A stretch of 64,000 nt of DNA from an uncultured Gemmatimonadota bacterium (GTDB taxonomy: Bacteria; GCA-2686955): positions 1 to 64,000 of the forward strand of contig CAZBBK010000024.1 of NCBI GenBank assembly GCA_964490075.1, in the 5' to 3' direction. Under the pieces are notes generated by a model. The model was not told where the DNA came from. It saw only the letters and a list, made by a program, of their open reading frames with translations, and did not search any database. Every line of letters starts with the position of its first letter. Position 1 is the stretch's first letter. The position numbers and the translations under genes are program-made. This document shows positions 2,734-49,036 of the stretch, one piece after another.

Positions 2734-4106
2734 GCCGCCCACCAGTCGGAGCTCGGCCCCCCGAAAATCCCCTGGTCCGCGCGCCCCTCCCCGCGCGCCG
2801 GTCCCCCGGCATCACCGAGCCGCGCGTCGTGGTCCCCGCCGTCCACCGCCGGAGAGGCGTCGTCCAGCACGAAACCGTCGATGCCGTCGAGAGCCAGCGC
2901 CCAGGCGGAGCGCGCGCCGCCGAGCCCGTCCGCCTCGACCAGGCCGCGCCGCGGGTCGACGAAGAGCGGATCCAGGCCGGTTCGATTGGTCTCGTCGAGC
3001 GCCACGTTGGCGGGCTCCGAAGGATGCTGGATCAGGTTGTAGCGCAGCTCGATCCGGGCTTCGGGGCGCGGCGAGCCCTGCACGTGGATCGCTTCGCGCT
3101 GCGCGTGCTTCGGGTCCCGGCCGTTCATGTGAAAGATGTTGTTGCGCACGTCCGCCAGGGCCGCCACCAGGCGGCATTCGCGCTCCTTCGCCACCAGCTC
3201 GGCGGGACGGACCAGCAATCCCGCCGCGTCGTTGGCCAGGAAGAGGTTGTTGTAGATCGCGGTCGCCTCGCTTCCGCGCTGGCCGTCGAGCACCAGCCCG
3301 TGTCCGCCCAGCCTCCCCAGTCCGATCGGATGATCGATCGAGAAGGCGCCCGCGAAGAGGTTGTTGTGTACCCGCACCGCGCCGGGGAGCTGCAGGTGCA
3401 GCTGCGCCCGATGCGACCTCAATAAGACATTGTGGACGATCTCGAGATCCTGGCCCTCGGTCACGTGCACCCCCTCGGTGCCGCAACGGGCGATCAGGCA
3501 GTGCTCGATCCGCCCACTGGAGCGATGCAGCTCGATGGCGTTGCCACCCAGTCCCAGGAAGGCGCAGCGGCGCACCAGGATCCGGGAAGGTGCCTGGGCC
3601 AGACGAGCCGGATCGAGCGCATTCCAGCGCGTATCGCAGCCGCGGGTCTGAGCCGAGACACCGGCCTTGATGCCCACCAGGAGCGATTCAAAGGTGCAGT
3701 CGTTGACGCTGATTCGAGATTCGACGGCATCGCCGGCGGTCCAGGCGTTGAGCAGATGGATGCCGATCGACGAGTCTTCGCGACCTCGGAAGTCGATCCC
3801 GGAGACCGAGAGCTCGAAGGGAAGTGCCTGGCGATTGTCGATCTCGAGGATGCCCGCCCCATCCTCGCCCGGGGCCCAGCGCGCCGGCTCATCGCCGGCC
3901 GCGACCAGAGTGAGGCGCGAGAGACGGGCCGCATCGATCCGCAGCGATTCGCGGAACGAGCCATCGAGGGCGAGGGTGTCGCCGGCGGCGCAGGTCGCGA
4001 TCACCTCGCGCAGCGAGGATCGATCGCCCGACACCTCGATGGTGGTGCCGGACGCCGGGTGCAGGGCGGCCGCCGCCAGGGTGCAGAGAAGGGTCTTGGC
4101 GTCCAT
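2718..4106 (-). CDS. Secreted right-handed parallel beta-helix repeat protein
   Basis: Signal-like N-terminus; repeated I.HN / V.NNLF / I.NNLF / V.NNIF; C-terminal SPAVDGGD...RADQGIFGGP; GGAGG RBS. Confidence 0.75.
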   Translation of the reverse strand: MDAKTLLCTLAAAALHPASGTTIEVSGDRSSLREVIATCAAGDTLALDGSFRESLRIDAARLSRLTLVAAGDEPARWAPGEDGAGILEIDNRQALPFELSVSGIDFRGREDSSIGIHLLNAWTAGDAVESRISVNDCTFESLLVGIKAGVSAQTRGCDTRWNALDPARLAQAPSRILVRRCAFLGLGGNAIELHRSSGRIEHCLIARCGTEGVHVTEGQDLEIVHNVLLRSHRAQLHLQLPGAVRVHNNLFAGAFSIDHPIGLGRLGGHGLVLDGQRGSEATAIYNNLFLANDAAGLLVRPAELVAKERECRLVAALADVRNNIFHMNGRDPKHAQREAIHVQGSPRPEARIELRYNLIQHPSEPANVALDETNRTGLDPLFVDPRRGLVEADGLGGARSAWALALDGIDGFVLDDASPAVDGGDHDARLGDAGGPARGEGRADQGIFGGPSSDWWAAQRRQ

Positions 4107-44151: not shown

Positions 44152-45555
44152 ATGCCCGAATTCCTCATCATCGGCGGAGTATCAGCGGGAACCAGCGCCG
44201 CGGCCCGTGCCCGGCGCCTCTCCCCGGATCTGAAGATCACCATCCTCGAAAAGAGCGCCGATATCTCCTACCGGGCTTGCGGCATTCCCGATGCGATGGC
44301 GGAGCCGGACCCCGATCTGGAGAGTCTGATCGTGCGGCCTGCGGCCGCTTTCGCTCAGGACCAGGTGCTGATCCGTTTCGAGCACGAGGCCGTGGGCATC
44401 GATCCCGATCGAGGTCGAGTGCACTGCGTTGCGGGTGGTCGCGACGTAGTGCTGAGCTACGATCACCTGCTCTTGACCATGGGGGCGCTGCCGGTCAGGC
44501 CGGAGGTGCCGGGAGTCGATCTGCCGGGGGTGGAGGTGCTCCGATCTCTGGGCGACGCGCGGGTGCTTCGAACCTACTGTCGCGAGGGAGTGCTGTCCCG
44601 AGTCACAGTGGTGGGAGCGGGCTACGTCGGTGTCGCCATGGCGGAGGCGCTGGCGCGCAGAGGTCTCGATGTGACCCTGATCGAGGAGCGCGATGCGATC
44701 CTGCCCGGAGTCGAAAGCGTAATCGCCCATAAGGTGGTGAAGGCGGTGCGCAAACAGGGGGTGCGCGTGCTGCTGGGGGCCGCCCTGGCGGGGATCGAGA
44801 GGGAATCGCAATCGGCGCGTCACCTGGTGGTAGAGACAGAAGAAGGAACCAAGTTTTCGACCGACCTGGTGCTGCTGGCCACCGGCGTTCGACCCAACGT
44901 CGATTTCGCCAAGGAGGCGGGGGTCGAGCTGGGCGAAACCGGCGCGATCGCCGTCGATGCGCTGCAGCGCACCAATATCGACGGGATCCTGGCGGCCGGG
45001 GACTGTGCCGAGGCCTATCACCGGATCGTCGAGCGAGCGGCGTGGGTGCCGCTCTGCACCACGGCGATCAAGCAGGGGCGCGTGGCGGGCTCTGTGGTTG
45101 CCGGAGAGGCAGACTATTTCCACGGAGTGGTCGGCACCATGGCGGCGGAGGTGTGCGGCACGCAGGTGGCCCGCACCGGGCTGACGATGTCGGAGGCGAA
45201 ATCCGCGGGCTTCGATCCGGTGATGGCCGTAACCAGTGCACCGTCGCGAGCGCCCGGGCGGCCCGAGGGGCGTTCTCTGAACATGGCCATTATCGCCGAC
45301 CGCAAAGAGGGCAGGCTGATCGGAGCCCATTGTTGCGGCCAGGATGGAGCAGTGCTGCGGATCAACACCTTCGCCGCGGCGCTTCACGCCGAGCTGGCGG
45401 CCGAAGACGTGGCGACCATCGATCTCGCCTACACGCCTTCGGCGGCGCCGGTCTGGGATCCGATCCTGGTCGGCGCATCGTTGGCCGCCCGGAAGATCGT
45501 GGAGCCGCCGCGGGCTCCGCGCGCCCGACTGCCGCGGGTCGCCGGCTCGCGCTGA
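44152..45555 (+). CDS. CoA-disulfide reductase / NADH oxidase family flavoprotein
   Basis: IIGGVSAG, ISYRACGIP (redox Cys), GAGYVG, AAGDC, DLAYTP...VWDP. Confidence 0.9.
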   Translation: MPEFLIIGGVSAGTSAAARARRLSPDLKITILEKSADISYRACGIPDAMAEPDPDLESLIVRPAAAFAQDQVLIRFEHEAVGIDPDRGRVHCVAGGRDVVLSYDHLLLTMGALPVRPEVPGVDLPGVEVLRSLGDARVLRTYCREGVLSRVTVVGAGYVGVAMAEALARRGLDVTLIEERDAILPGVESVIAHKVVKAVRKQGVRVLLGAALAGIERESQSARHLVVETEEGTKFSTDLVLLATGVRPNVDFAKEAGVELGETGAIAVDALQRTNIDGILAAGDCAEAYHRIVERAAWVPLCTTAIKQGRVAGSVVAGEADYFHGVVGTMAAEVCGTQVARTGLTMSEAKSAGFDPVMAVTSAPSRAPGRPEGRSLNMAIIADRKEGRLIGAHCCGQDGAVLRINTFAAALHAELAAEDVATIDLAYTPSAAPVWDPILVGASLAARKIVEPPRAPRARLPRVAGSR

Positions 45556-45565
45556 CCGGGTCCTA

Positions 45566-48307
45566 TCAATCCAGACCCGGCGGCACGGCGCCCTCCAGAA
45601 AGCGCTCGAGCCGGCGCGCGTGCGCGGCGTTCCAGCCGCTCTCGATCTGGGCCACGGTCCCGTCGACTTCGATCAGGAGTGTGATCGGAACCCGCGGCGG
45701 AGCGCCACCGAAGAGCATCCGTCGCAGCGGCTTCGAGGCGATGGCATTGCGGTAGGTGGCGTCGGCGGCGTGGATTCGCGTTTCGATCGCCGCCTTGCGC
45801 GTCGGAGGATCGATGCTGATGCCGATCACCGAATCGCGTGGATGACGCTTCGCGAGGCCGGCGAGAAAGCGCATCTCGCGCGGGCAGATCCGGCACCACG
45901 AGGCCCACAGATTCACCACACATCGAGCGCCGCCCGGGACCAGTGCGCGCAGCTCGACCAGCTCGCCGGTCAGCGTTTCCGCGCTGCCCTTCGGCAGCGC
46001 CTCTCCGACCCGCAGCGCCAAGGGCTCGGCGGTGCCGGGATCGGGCAGACGCGCCGCGCGCTGCTCCAGACGGATCGGGCGCTGCTCGCCCGCCACGAAA
46101 CGCCAGTAGCTTCCGGCGGGAAGATCGTGGGCCCGGGTCCGCGAGCCGCCCGGCCACTCTATCTCGACGTCGGCCCGCCGATCGTCGCCCAGGCCGAAGA
46201 GCAGACGCGGGTCGTGCTGGGAGAGAAATCCTGAGCCCGCCGAACGGATACGAGTCTGCGTCCCGGCGGATCCCCTGACCCGCACCACCGCGCCGAGGGC
46301 GCCGGCGCCGCCGCCGTGGCTCCCGGTCAGCTCCAGGCGAAGCCAGCCAGCACTCTGGCCGATGTTGTTGCGATAGAGCAGATGGGTCGGACCCTGCAGC
46401 GTGGTCGCAAACAAATCGTGATCGCCATCGTTGTCGAAGTCGGCGAACACCACCGCTCGGCCATCCCCCTGGTGGTCGATGCCCGAAACTCCCGAAAGCT
46501 CGCGGTAGAGGGGAGGCGTTCCACCGCCCCGATGCCGATACAGACGGTTGCGCTCGTAGCCGCTGAACGAAAACCCTTGGTCGAGCAGGCGCGCCTGCTC
46601 TTCGAGCCAGGCGGACTCTCCAGCCTCCTCGAGCCCTTCCTCGGACGCCACCACGTGGCGCCAATGTTGGCTTCACGTGTCGTGCATCGAGGTTCCCGAG
46701 ACGAATCCGGCCGGCAGATACAGATCTTGCCAGCCGTCGTTGTCGAAGTCCACGAAGCCCCCGCCCCAGGCCCAGCCGGCCGCCAGTCCTCCGCTGCGCC
46801 CGGTCCAGTCCTCGAAGCGCTCTTCCGCGAGGCGCCGATAGAGACTGTTGCCTGCCGCCAGCTTGGCCAGCAGCGGTGGCGGCGCCTCGCCGTAGAGCCG
46901 CGCGAGCAACCGTCTTCCCGCCGTCGAAGACATATTGGTGACGTGCAAATCGAGTGCTCCGTCGTTGTCTACATCTCCGAATGAAACGCCCATGCCGCTG
47001 CCGGGGTCGAGCACACCCCAATCCCGCGCCCGGTCCTCGAAGATGTTGCCGCGGTTGATGAAGAGCGCGTTTTCCCCGAAGTCATTGGCCACGTAGAGAT
47101 CGACTCGACCGTCCCGGTTCAGGTCGGCGAATGCCGCGGCGTAGCTCCAGCGGGAATCGTCCACACCCCAATCCCGAGCTTGCTCTCGGAAAGTGCCGTC
47201 GCGCTGATTCATGAAGAGCAGGTTCGCGGTGCCGTTGCGCGCCCGTGACCAATCATCCGGAAAGACCTTTCCGTAGCGATTGTACGACGTGACATAGATA
47301 TCGAGGAATCCATCGCCATCCACATCGGCGCTCAGCGCCGAGTAGCCGAGAGCAGAACGAGGATCGGATCGCCGCGTGACGTTGCGAAAGCCGAGCCGCC
47401 CCTCGAGGTCGAGACGATTTTCGTAGAACTGAACCGGGCCGACCGCACTCAGGAAGAGATCGAGATCTCCGTCGTTGTCCCAGTCGAGCAGGAGAGGCGC
47501 GGATGCGTCGGGATGGCTGGCGAGACCGAGCGCCGCTCCTCGATCTACGAAGGATCCGTCCCCCTGGTTGAGATAGACGTGGGGCTGGGCGGGACCGGTC
47601 GCGACGATGTCGAGCCAGCCGTCGCGATCCAGATCGCCGGCGCACGCGCCGTGGAACACCCCCTCGGACCAGCGCCACGGCGGTAGCTCGGCCGCCACAC
47701 CCGCCGCGGCGCCCACCTCGTCGAAGAGCTCGGTGTTGGCGAGCAGCGAGCCGGCCGGGCCTTGAGTCAGGCGAATGGGCTTCCAGCGTGCGTGGCGATC
47801 GGGCGTGGCGATGGCTCGTGCGCTGCCCCGCAGCCACTCGCGGTTTCGATCCTGTGTGCGGCCCACCACGGAGTAGTGCAGGGTGGCCTCGAGGCGGCGG
47901 TCGGAGTCCACCAAGCTAGAGCTCTTCACCTTGAATCGAACGTCTTCCAGCTCCGTGAAGTGCTGGTGCCAGCTCCGCACACTGACCAGGAGAGGATCCG
48001 AGCCGGCCCCCGGAGGCCCGCTGGCGCCCGGGAGCCAGCGGCGCTCCTGGGCCCAGGGATCGAGCTCGGCTGGCGCCGGCGCCGGCTGGGGGAGCGGCTC
48101 CAGCTCGGCCCCGGGATGGAAAGCGCGCTCGATTCCCTGCCAATCGCCGTCGCGAACGGCCATCGAGAGATCGAGCAGGTTGTGGGCCAACGACTCGCTG
48201 GCTCGCTCCTGGCGGTCCATGCCGGCGCCGAACTGCTCGGCGCGAGGCGGCACCGGGTCGTTCGGTGCGGCGAGTAGAGCGAGGCCGCAGAGGGTTGTGG
48301 GGATCAT
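45566..48307 (-). CDS. CRTAC1-like FG-GAP repeat / ASPIC-UnbV protein with C-terminal TlpA-like thioredoxin domain; probable selenoprotein (in-frame TGA at 46673-46675)
   Basis: ORFs 46673-48307 and 45566-46654 share one frame separated only by TGA; DxDxDGxxDL repeats on both sides; GSGFLSQ...LFGLG..IEWPGG (ASPIC/UnbV); WASWCRIC; hairpin after the TGA. Confidence 0.75.
46644..46662 (-). promoter_or_regulatory. Candidate bacterial SECIS element
   Basis: mRNA UGA-AGCCAACAUU-GGCGCCAC-GUG-GUGGCGUC: 8-bp stem (one G-U) starting 10 nt after UGA, G-led apical loop after 18 nt. Confidence 0.65.
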
Positions 48308-48403
48308 GGCGGAGCACCCTACCCCAGCGCCCACATGGTAGGCCCGGGGCATTACCATTCGCCTTCGCAACCCTTCGCGCCCGCGATGCCGGGAAGCAGC
48401 ACC

Positions 48404-49036
48404 ATGTCCTCCACCGAAACGATCGAGATCCGGCCGCTCGCGGCGCGCGATGAGGCGTTCGCGTTGCTGCGCTTCCTGGTGTTGGTCTATGCGCTGCTCT
48501 TTCTCGCGCTGTGGGGGCGCATCGAGCGCGGCGGAGAGGAGCTGGGGCTCTTCCCCTTTCAGCTCCCCTTCGGCGAGCTTTCGCAAAGCGATCAGCGGAT
48601 GTACCGACAGTTGCGCGAGGGAATTGCCGAGCTCGTGCGCTATCGGTCGATGGACGGCGCCTGGCCGCCGGTCGCGCTGCTCGAAAGTGCCGGCGTGCCG
48701 CCCTTCGCGGAGCACCCTCTCGATGCCGGAGCCTACCACTGGTCGCTGCGGCTCGAAGGTCGCTCGATTCGATACTTGGGCAGCGCCGCGCCGGGGCGAA
48801 GCTCCTTTCTGGTGACGATTGCCGAGCCCGATCCGCGCGCTCCGGACGTCACCCACCTGGGCATGAAGGCGCTCGACGAGCTGCATCGCCGCCTCGACGA
48901 CGGAACGATCCTCGACCTGGGCGTATGGCTGCGCCCAGGCCCCGCGCCGGCGCGCGTCCTCGATCCGCCGATGAACCAGGACTGGAAACAGATCGTCGCG
49001 TCGCCTCCCGGCGACTCCACCGGAGGTCTCCCGTGA
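48404..49036 (+). CDS. DUF6162 / FpvK-like membrane protein
   Basis: IRP.AA..E + TM, LS..DQ.MY..L, WP.V..LE...VPPF, W...Y.G, DLGVW; lies directly before an FpvC-like binding protein. Confidence 0.65.
   Translation: MSSTETIEIRPLAARDEAFALLRFLVLVYALLFLALWGRIERGGEELGLFPFQLPFGELSQSDQRMYRQLREGIAELVRYRSMDGAWPPVALLESAGVPPFAEHPLDAGAYHWSLRLEGRSIRYLGSAAPGRSSFLVTIAEPDPRAPDVTHLGMKALDELHRRLDDGTILDLGVWLRPGPAPARVLDPPMNQDWKQIVASPPGDSTGGLP

Follow-up and report, generated by a model that had tools for sequence, protein, structure and literature searches.

A probable unannotated selenoprotein: an FG-GAP/UnbV_ASPIC propeller gene with a fused thioredoxin-like domain is interrupted by a conserved in-frame UGA

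Does an in-frame TGA that divides a long coding region mark the end of one gene, or is it decoded? This question is raised by a minus-strand locus in a 64,000-nucleotide stretch of DNA (positions 1 to 64,000 of contig CAZBBK010000024.1, GenBank assembly GCA_964490075.1; hereafter the window) from an uncultured Gemmatimonadota bacterium. When read through, the locus is an open reading frame (ORF) of 913 sense codons, from an ATG to a terminal TGA, with a single internal in-frame TGA at codon 545, in the context GFVSGTSMHDT-TGA-SQHWRHVVASEE. A first-pass annotation, made from the letters alone, had proposed that this codon specifies selenocysteine (Sec) in a protein combining an FG-GAP propeller, an ASPIC/UnbV domain, and a thioredoxin domain with a WCRIC motif. 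Its basic description is borne out: the two ORFs called on either side of the codon lie in one frame and are joined by this single TGA, DxDxDG repeats of the FG-GAP type are found on both of its flanks, and Pfam recognizes both the UnbV_ASPIC and the WCRIC-bearing domain in the 913-residue read-through product. The best explanation of the evidence as a whole, to which we assign a probability of roughly 85%, is that the two ORFs are one gene for an exported selenoprotein of ~913 residues, whose Sec is redox-active and is resolved by a fused thioredoxin-like (Trx-like) domain. We are surer still of the part on which everything else depends, namely that codon 545 very probably encodes Sec, a conclusion for which comparisons among homologues argue strongly.

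The internal TGA is conserved in close and distant relatives. A six-frame search of 41 related genomes detected an ortholog in one other genus (G002), which matches the product at full length with 62% identity over residues 3-906 and carries TGA at the same column, as does a paralog with 40% identity encoded on a different contig of the host genome (PVDT-TGA-SHFWRTVV). A DNA-level scan with one genome per species yielded 237 relatives, of which the best 80 loci were kept for counts. All 80 of these loci have TGA at the Sec column, followed in frame by S[QHLF]FWR[QH]VV, and their internal stop is never TAG or TAA. Because the terminal stops of 80 complete genes in the homologue set are mixed (TAG 31, TAA 27, and TGA 22), the exclusive use of TGA at the internal position is not a matter of base composition. 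By record label, 74 of the 80 loci belong to Acidobacteriota, two to Latescibacterota, and one each to Gemmatimonadota, Planctomycetota, Bacillota, and Pseudomonadota, although these are labels of metagenome-assembled genomes, some of which may be mis-binned. Some orthologs were listed with two TGA codons; a second Sec was rejected after one of them (G135, locus L108) was checked and its second TGA proved to be the terminal stop.

The residues around the codon are conserved as well. D543 and T544 are invariant in an 11-sequence alignment, and S546, W549, and R550, which are encoded after the TGA but before any codon at which translation could restart, are invariant in 71/71 alignment rows; three of the six codons that separate the TGA from the GTG opening the downstream ORF therefore encode invariant residues. 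Among 14 distant TGA-containing paralogs that were fetched (30-40% identity), the stop lies four residues before the tryptophan of the WR motif in every case, in the contexts DT-TGA-SxFWR, DL-TGA-SFFWR, DL-TGA-TYFWR, DT-TGA-VLFWN, DT-TGA-PTLWR, DY/DF-TGA-TFFWR, and DG-TGA-TCLWR. Several subfamilies thus have the Sec column in common. In a sample of 151 Acidobacteriota genomes, three of them unpublished (G093, G068, and G190), a homologue at E ≤1e-40 is present in 44 genomes, with 63 matches in total, 36 of which contain a TGA.

Public protein records reflect the same pattern in truncated form. A word-indexed protein search with residues 470-640 returned 120 listed matches, 68 of which are calls of ~510-640 residues ending in ...NGF[IVL]SGK[ST]MKDT. 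An exhaustive HMMER search of 1.84 billion representatives at 50% identity found 3,285 proteins at E ≤1e-30; among the best 150 of them, 36 end at the Sec column (31 by pattern and five more by eye) and five are separately called C-terminal pieces that start within ~15 residues after it. Full-length homologues without TGA also exist. The truncated proteins of the carriers are named "hypothetical protein" or "VCBS repeat-containing protein" in NCBI records, and Sec-less relatives bear the name "CRTAC1 family protein" in public records.

The RNA that follows the codon was analyzed as well. A SECIS-like stem-loop (SECIS, selenocysteine insertion sequence) ten nucleotides after the UGA, as the first-pass annotation had described, is present, and can be drawn with an 8-bp stem and a 3-nt loop or with 6 bp and 5 nt. 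The GTG at 46654 that was mechanically called as the start of the downstream ORF is the GUG of its apical loop and has no Shine-Dalgarno-like sequence before it, both as first noted. Folded alone, the 27-nt hairpin stretch reaches -13.9 kcal/mol (z -3.2 versus shuffles), and the hairpins of five other sequences that were folded reach -9.3, -10.8, -9.5, -10.1, and -10.6 kcal/mol. The published model of bacterial SECIS elements (bSECIS) specifies a loop of 3-9 nt and an upper stem of 4-16 bp (PMC13188914, Fig. 2 legend), together with a G in position one or two of the loop, a UGA-to-loop distance of 16-37 nt, and a minimum free energy of ≤-7.5 kcal/mol (PMC13188914). The hairpin fits this model in all four of its constraints. 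No Rfam family matches the hairpin region; two matches on the other strand (E 0.8 and 4.4) were judged to be chance.

An RNA alignment of 81 sequences (75 distinct), which extends from 9 nt on the 5' side of the TGA to 42 nt on its 3' side, is gapless and yields a family consensus of UGA, 11 nt, a stem GCGUCA, a loop GGUCG, and a stem UGACGC, that is, a 6-bp stem. Standard pairs make up 96.2% of the cells of this 6-pair helix versus 90.3% in column shuffles, a value of 96.2% being reached in 0/500 shuffles, and pairing drops to 13-69% when the 3' stem partner is slid by one to three columns. The pair at columns 27-37 is UA in 46 of the distinct sequences, CG in 17, GU in eight, UG in two, AU in one, and unpaired in one. 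Column 27 falls on the third, synonymous position of an Arg codon, and column 37 on the first base of a Thr, Ala, or Ser codon; a silent position thus tracks its pairing partner. The UGA-to-loop spacing is 17-18 nt in all aligned sequences, and columns 31-32 (G and U) are invariant in all 81, with loops of GUG or CGUGG (window), GGUCG, AGUUG, and GGUC, the last in the host's paralog, whose hairpin stands at the same place with a different sequence (GCGCAC-GGUC-GUGCGC). Chance falls far short of explaining how one TGA column and one hairpin recur in all of the related loci that were inspected.

If codon 545 encodes Sec, the host must be able to decode it. The host assembly (95% complete, 136 contigs) was searched for selA, selB, selC, and selD, as the first-pass annotation had suggested, and all four are present, each above its curated or gathering score: SelA (E 9.8e-129), SelB (345.6 bits versus a cut-off of 242), SelD (317.9 bits), and tRNA-Sec (75.2 bits versus a gathering score of 47). 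The selD gene has one in-frame TGA of its own (G000:C65:32509-33429) and represents the known form of selenophosphate synthetase that contains Sec; Sec decoding is thus already a requirement of this organism. SelA was also found in 5/5 carrier genomes from four phylum labels. In the Acidobacteriota sample, the TGA form occurs in 26/151 genomes, 25 of which have SelA at E ≤1e-60 (23/24 without the three unpublished genomes). Two genomes with TGA-free homologues only and without SelA (G072 and G140) have no clear tRNA-Sec, their best candidates scoring 47.1 bits, at the threshold, and 45 bits. In one Acidobacteriota genome (G066), the ortholog (G066:C1:1153740-1156487) lies ~700 nt upstream of selA (1157200-1158285) on the same strand, a single case that could be coincidence.

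We next consider what kind of protein would carry this Sec. All Pfam matches of the read-through product exceed their gathering scores. They comprise FG-GAP_3 (six stretches, E 2.6e-42) and FG-GAP over the propeller, which together with UnbV_ASPIC score 143.7, 69.4, and 57.2 bits, all over the cut-offs, and AhpC-TSA at residues 767-843 (30.1 bits versus a cut-off of 26), which includes the WCRIC motif at 804-808. C805 and C808 of this motif are Cys in 59/59 alignment rows that have the domain, and no other Cys column is conserved. An AlphaFold2 model built from a 115-row alignment, with C in place of U, has a mean pLDDT of 90.9 and a pTM of 0.88, and is composed, in order, of a hydrophobic N-terminus, a beta-sheet domain, a propeller with an insert, an UnbV_ASPIC beta-domain, and a thioredoxin fold. 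The N-terminal domain (residues ~22-200) has no Pfam match; by our own reading of its modeled shape it may be NTF2/SnoaL-like, and one homologue is named "ketosteroid isomerase-like" in its source. The insert consists of two helices (545-556 and 565-576) between propeller blades, and residues 541-550 are modeled with a pLDDT of 92. The first-pass annotation had placed Sec in a propeller loop; the propeller region stands, but in the model Sec545 is the first residue of the insert, so that it is predicted to sit at a helix start, within the motif D-T-U-S-x-x-W-R. In Foldseek searches, the best PDB match was murine CRTAC1 (9etn_A, E 8.5e-29, TM 0.73 by target), and structures of ResA, TlpA, and DsbE matched the C-terminal domain with TM ~0.80 by target. 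TlpA/ResA-type domains act outside the cytoplasm, and homologues begin with typical signal peptides in their translations; for these two reasons the protein is probably exported.

The fused CxxC domain had been suggested as a natural redox partner for the Sec, and this idea has gained support from the distribution of domains. In the published Acidobacteriota genomes, 31/34 TGA-containing matches, but only 2/21 TGA-free matches spanning the Sec column, extend to query residue 833 or beyond, past the CxxC motif, although these rows are related to each other and their independence is thereby overstated. A second Sec-containing CRTAC1-like gene of the host genome (L023, G000:C4:90190-94458; gene at 241-2847, TGA at 2110) has no fused Trx domain and shares the four bases ATGA, at its stop, with the beginning of an AhpC/TSA-like gene with a WCSAC motif (2844-3362). 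A TPR and FG-GAP gene follows the latter in that locus (3515 onward). Furthermore, a subfamily with the motif DG-U-T-C-LWR, in which the same column forms a UxC motif, ends after UnbV_ASPIC and has no Trx-like domain (L127/L136, G134:C1:3999316-4001004; L129, G098:C41). This UxC form and the main form are found together in the complete genome from which P0035 comes, recorded as "Acidobacteria bacterium Mor1". The host genome also has three genes for DsbD_TM/CcdA-type membrane reductases.

A mechanism consistent with these observations can be proposed. On the comparative evidence, UGA 545 is decoded as Sec by the SelA/SelB/SelD/tRNA-Sec system, and SelB would be recruited by the stem-loop 10-11 nt after the UGA, which has a G/GU-containing apical loop. 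The selenolate at the helix N-terminus would then serve as the redox-active nucleophile of an extracytoplasmic oxidoreductase, and its target may be a peroxide, a disulfide, or another oxidized substrate bound by the propeller. Oxidized Sec would be resolved by Cys805 and Cys808 of the fused Trx-like domain, which in turn may be re-reduced through a membrane electron transporter of the CcdA/DsbD type; in the UxC type a local Cys could take the resolving role, and in other types a fused or adjacent CxxC domain. We lean, by a modest degree, toward this coupling between the Sec and the Trx-like domain, which the domain distribution suggests.

Several observations weigh against this picture. Cys is seldom found at the Sec column, in contrast to most selenoprotein families. 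The 120 listed matches comprise four with Cys, nine with Ser, 17 with other residues (one to three each of L, N, E, Q, V, R, D, T, A, M, and G), the 68 that end there, and 22 unclassified; among the best 150 of the 3,285 representatives, Cys occurs in two versus Ser in eight, Glu in eight, Asp in seven, and Ala in six. The Cys forms (P0003, P0004, P0007, P0042, and P0244) are a small minority of the Sec-less forms, and six TGA-free distant paralogs have N, A, E, E, S, and E. The Trx-like domain is kept without Sec or Cys at the column in P0006 (Val), P0009 (Ser), P0010 (Leu), G127 (Glu), and G140 (Ala), and thus cannot serve Sec only. S546, W549, and R550 are likewise invariant in the Sec-less forms, so the motif is not specific to selenium chemistry. 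SelA is present in 119/151 Acidobacteriota genomes overall (116/148 without the unpublished three), which makes the co-occurrence test weak, and it was not found in one TGA-bearing genome (G122), whose tRNA-Sec scores 76.2 bits. As for the hairpin, the covariation rests on one variable pair, the other five being near-fixed and explicable by protein constraint, and RNAalifold recovers only 4/6 pairs. Folding of the downstream RNA was a check proposed at the outset: the 27-nt hairpin is stable alone, but when 81 nt of the region are folded, the minimum-energy structure instead pairs ACACGUG, a segment overlapping the UGA, with CACGUG. Finally, the gene neighborhood is little conserved, the commonest neighbor being present in 10/83 loci, and gives no clue to the substrate.

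The varied residues at the Sec column deserve particular attention, since the first-pass annotation had named varied non-Cys residues in homologues as a finding that would count against Sec. Such residues (Ser, Glu, Asp, and Ala) are indeed common there; given the other evidence, we judge that they do not refute Sec, and the sequence comparisons instead mark the family as unusual. In a quick, midpoint-rooted tree of 101 rows, whose root is arbitrary, 91 rows group into a clade (support 99) whose backbone has the Sec state and within which Cys, Ser, and other forms are nested; the state of the column changes six times versus 27.2 times in shuffles. An ancestral Sec with repeated loss is suggested by this tree, the direction of change depending on its midpoint rooting.

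The same residues lend themselves to another explanation, in which Sec is a ligand of a metal or cofactor in the propeller and not a redox nucleophile, and the Trx-like domain only keeps the ligand reduced for metal loading. Sec coordinates Mo in formate dehydrogenase and Ni in [NiFeSe] hydrogenase, which would be models for such a role, and TlpA keeps copper sites reduced for metal loading. FG-GAP propellers generally bind Ca2+ via DxDxDG loops, the Sec-less homologues mostly have residues with oxygen ligands (Ser, Glu, Asp, and Asn) at the column, and the invariance of D543, T544, and S546 could reflect a cation site with a changed metal preference; a vanadium-haloperoxidase-like gene also lies directly downstream in 9/83 loci. 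Nevertheless, the column also accommodates Ala, Val, Leu, and Gly, the site is not surrounded by a conserved cluster of His or Cys (the only conserved Cys belong to the CxxC motif), genes for metal chaperones or cofactor synthesis are not conserved in the vicinity, and the UxC subtype without a Trx domain resembles a classical redox pair. We therefore regard a metal-ligand role as unlikely and retain the redox-active Sec as the preferred reading.

Much less probable is that the TGA is decoded as another amino acid, in a programmed read-through for which the hairpin is the stimulus and the codon is read by a near-cognate or suppressor tRNA (Trp, Cys, Gly, or Arg). Downstream stem-loops can in general stimulate stop-codon read-through, but the spacing, size, and G/GU loop of this hairpin match the SelB-binding bSECIS model, Sec machinery is present in 26/26 TGA-bearing sampled genomes, and the TGA-free carriers without SelA (G072 and G140) lack a clear tRNA-Sec. 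Moreover, the internal stop is always TGA, never TAG or TAA, and in the host genome TGA is an ordinary stop, including at the end of the same gene. That last observation, with the 22/80 homologues that likewise end in TGA, also rules out an alternative code in which TGA is a sense codon. The least credible reading, that the TGA is a real stop, whether because two genes are present, one gene is split or decaying, or the assembly is wrong, agrees with all public gene calls examined, which treat it as a stop (as in the 68/120 listed matches), and with the separately called C-terminal pieces and the GTG 18 nt after the TGA, but is opposed by a stop of the same type and position in 80/80 species-level genomes and in 30-40% identical paralogs, which is neither error nor decay, by the three invariant residues among the six codons before a GTG that lies inside the hairpin loop without a Shine-Dalgarno-like sequence, by a propeller fold that is continuous across the junction in a confident single-chain model, and by the existence of uninterrupted homologues. 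Sec insertion at codon 545 is thus the reading that we carry forward, and the features of the gene are collected in Table 1.

Table 1. Features of the predicted selenoprotein gene, in coordinates of the window.
Feature	Coordinates	Strand	Basis or remark
Whole predicted selenoprotein gene	45566..48307	minus	913 codons plus terminal TGA (45566-45568); start ATG at 48307 provisional
N-terminal helix and curved beta-sheet domain (residues ~22-200)	47708..48244	minus	AlphaFold secondary structure
FG-GAP beta-propeller with two-helix insert (residues ~205-660)	46328..47695	minus	Pfam, model, Foldseek
In-frame TGA, codon 545, read as Sec	46673..46675	minus	Position from read-through translation; column shared by homologues
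bSECIS-type hairpin GGCGCCAC-GUG-GUGGCGUC	46644..46662	minus	Starts 10 nt after the UGA; 18 nt from UGA to apical loop
UnbV_ASPIC domain (residues 670-735)	46103..46300	minus	Pfam E 1.6e-15, 57.2 bits versus cut-off 23.4
TlpA/ResA/DsbE-like thioredoxin-fold domain (residues ~765-910)	45578..46015	minus	Pfam, NCBIfam, structure matches
CRIC (C805, C808) of the WCRIC motif	45884..45895	minus	Only conserved cysteines of the protein

With the ATG in Table 1 as its start, the protein has a short hydrophobic N-terminus and no charged n-region, and an in-frame ATG 17 codons upstream (~48358) is a possible alternative. A start there would make the 5' end of the gene overlap with that of a divergent plus-strand gene (48335-49036), whose match to DUF6162 is weak and falls short of the gathering score. 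On the other side, a convergent plus-strand gene (44152-45555) encodes a pyridine nucleotide-disulfide oxidoreductase of the CoA-disulfide-reductase/NADH-oxidase type (Pyr_redox_2, E 2.2e-58) and has no internal TGA; the broad family to which it belongs has Sec-containing members in the table of a May 2026 review of prokaryotic selenoproteins. Among the 83 loci compared, another CRTAC1-family paralog is adjacent in 10, and a vanadium-haloperoxidase-like gene with DUF6851, VCPO_2nd, and PAP2 domains follows directly downstream on the same strand in nine (e.g., L098:6791-8383). With so little conserved among these loci, the neighborhood was rejected as a functional clue. With SelA in 119/151 sampled Acidobacteriota genomes, the Sec trait is itself highly frequent for a soil phylum.

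If confirmed, these findings would add a large, multi-domain, exported family to the prokaryotic selenoproteome, and hundreds of public calls ending in "...KDT", now named as VCBS-repeat or hypothetical proteins, would need correction. Since the carriers are mainly Acidobacteriota, a dominant soil phylum, the family may account for a substantial share of the biological selenium demand of soils. A column at which Sec mostly faces non-Cys residues would also make the family well suited to the question of when Cys cannot take the place of Sec. A broader proposition is possible, and we hold it tentatively, at somewhat below even odds: that propellers of the CRTAC1/ASPIC/UnbV type include a large and overlooked class of selenoenzymes that act outside the cytoplasm and rank among the most frequent selenoproteins in soil Acidobacteriota, in which Sec, as the catalytic residue, is ancestral to the whole clade and has repeatedly been lost to non-redox residues, and in which the D-T-U-S-x-x-W-R helix cap is the catalytic site. 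To our knowledge, no enzymatic activity is known for the CRTAC1/ASPIC/UnbV family. The proposition thus supplies a testable hypothesis on a catalytic site, and, if it is true, the D-T-U-S-x-x-W-R site would be the first functional handle on this family from bacteria to humans.

How does this gene compare with known systems? In its decoding signals it resembles the bacterial genes with a Sec UGA and a bSECIS element, of which E. coli fdhF is the archetype: an intragenic UGA is followed after 10-11 nt by a stem-loop with a small G/GU loop, SelA, SelB, SelD, and tRNA-Sec are encoded in the genome, and the gene is truncated by automatic annotation. The minimal fdhF element is likewise separated from the UGA by 11 nt, and its loop is GGUC. 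As points of difference, Sec here stands outside the thioredoxin fold and mostly not in a UxxC or CxxU motif, and the Sec-less homologues are mostly non-Cys. The first-pass annotation had held that this is not one of the classical selenoprotein families, and Table 1 of the May 2026 review agrees with it: among the 119 prokaryotic selenoprotein families and subfamilies in that table, none is an FG-GAP, VCBS, CRTAC1, or UnbV_ASPIC entry, and an arrangement with Sec in an extracytoplasmic beta-propeller and the thiol partner on a separate fused domain is not in this catalogue. The terms FG-GAP, VCBS, propeller, and CRTAC1 are absent from the main texts of the 2026 review, deep-Sep, and BSepDB, whose supplementary tables, including the BSepDB family list, might use another name. 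A literature search found no prior report on Sec in FG-GAP, VCBS, CRTAC1, ASPIC, or UnbV proteins or on SECIS elements of Acidobacteriota, and the propeller part is not covered by any model in NCBIfam release 20.

Among proteins of solved structure, murine CRTAC1 shares with the predicted selenoprotein the order of an FG-GAP propeller followed by UnbV_ASPIC, and the two match in sequence as well (9etn_A, E 7.1e-26), the UnbV_ASPIC region being aligned to 9etn_A residues 341-483. They differ in that the Sec-bearing segment with the two-helix insert (~490-582) is unaligned, while its flanks on both sides align; sequence alignment therefore does not show which residue solved CRTAC1 has at the Sec column. 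The selenoprotein further adds an N-terminal beta-sheet domain and a C-terminal Trx-like domain. Vertebrate CRTAC1 ends in an EGF-like Ca-binding domain; no EGF family is found among the Pfam matches of the selenoprotein at E values up to 0.01, and a thioredoxin-fold domain stands at its C-terminus instead.

The C-terminal domain itself shares a thioredoxin fold and a WCxxC motif with the TlpA/ResA/DsbE reductases, and the corresponding NCBIfam models match it, but with scores far below their curated cut-offs (ResA 32.7 versus 170, DsbE 23.2 versus 123.15, and TlpA 22.6 versus 230 bits). By these scores, it is related to the three proteins but is not an equivalog of any of them. It is also fused to a propeller protein of ~760 residues and is not a small membrane-anchored protein, and its presumed client is an intramolecular Sec. 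Sec-containing families of the TlpA/redoxin type resemble the present protein in having such a domain in a selenoprotein and in their presumed thiol/selenol redox function; as entered in Table 1 of the 2026 review, they carry Sec inside a UxxC or UGC motif, whereas here both Cys of the CxxC motif are kept and Sec lies 260 residues upstream in another domain. Peroxiredoxins of the AhpC/TSA type have the peroxidatic motif PxxxTxxC/U (PMC13188914), while the domain described here reads NLWASWCRICPRE, without a T-x-x-C context, and is of the CxxC dithiol type. In sum, the decoding mechanism is the ordinary bacterial one, and the gene is an example, missed by annotation, of a widespread family with several subfamilies; what is new for Sec is its host fold, its placement outside the cytoplasm and apart from its thiol partner, and the existence of homologues with residues other than Cys in its place.

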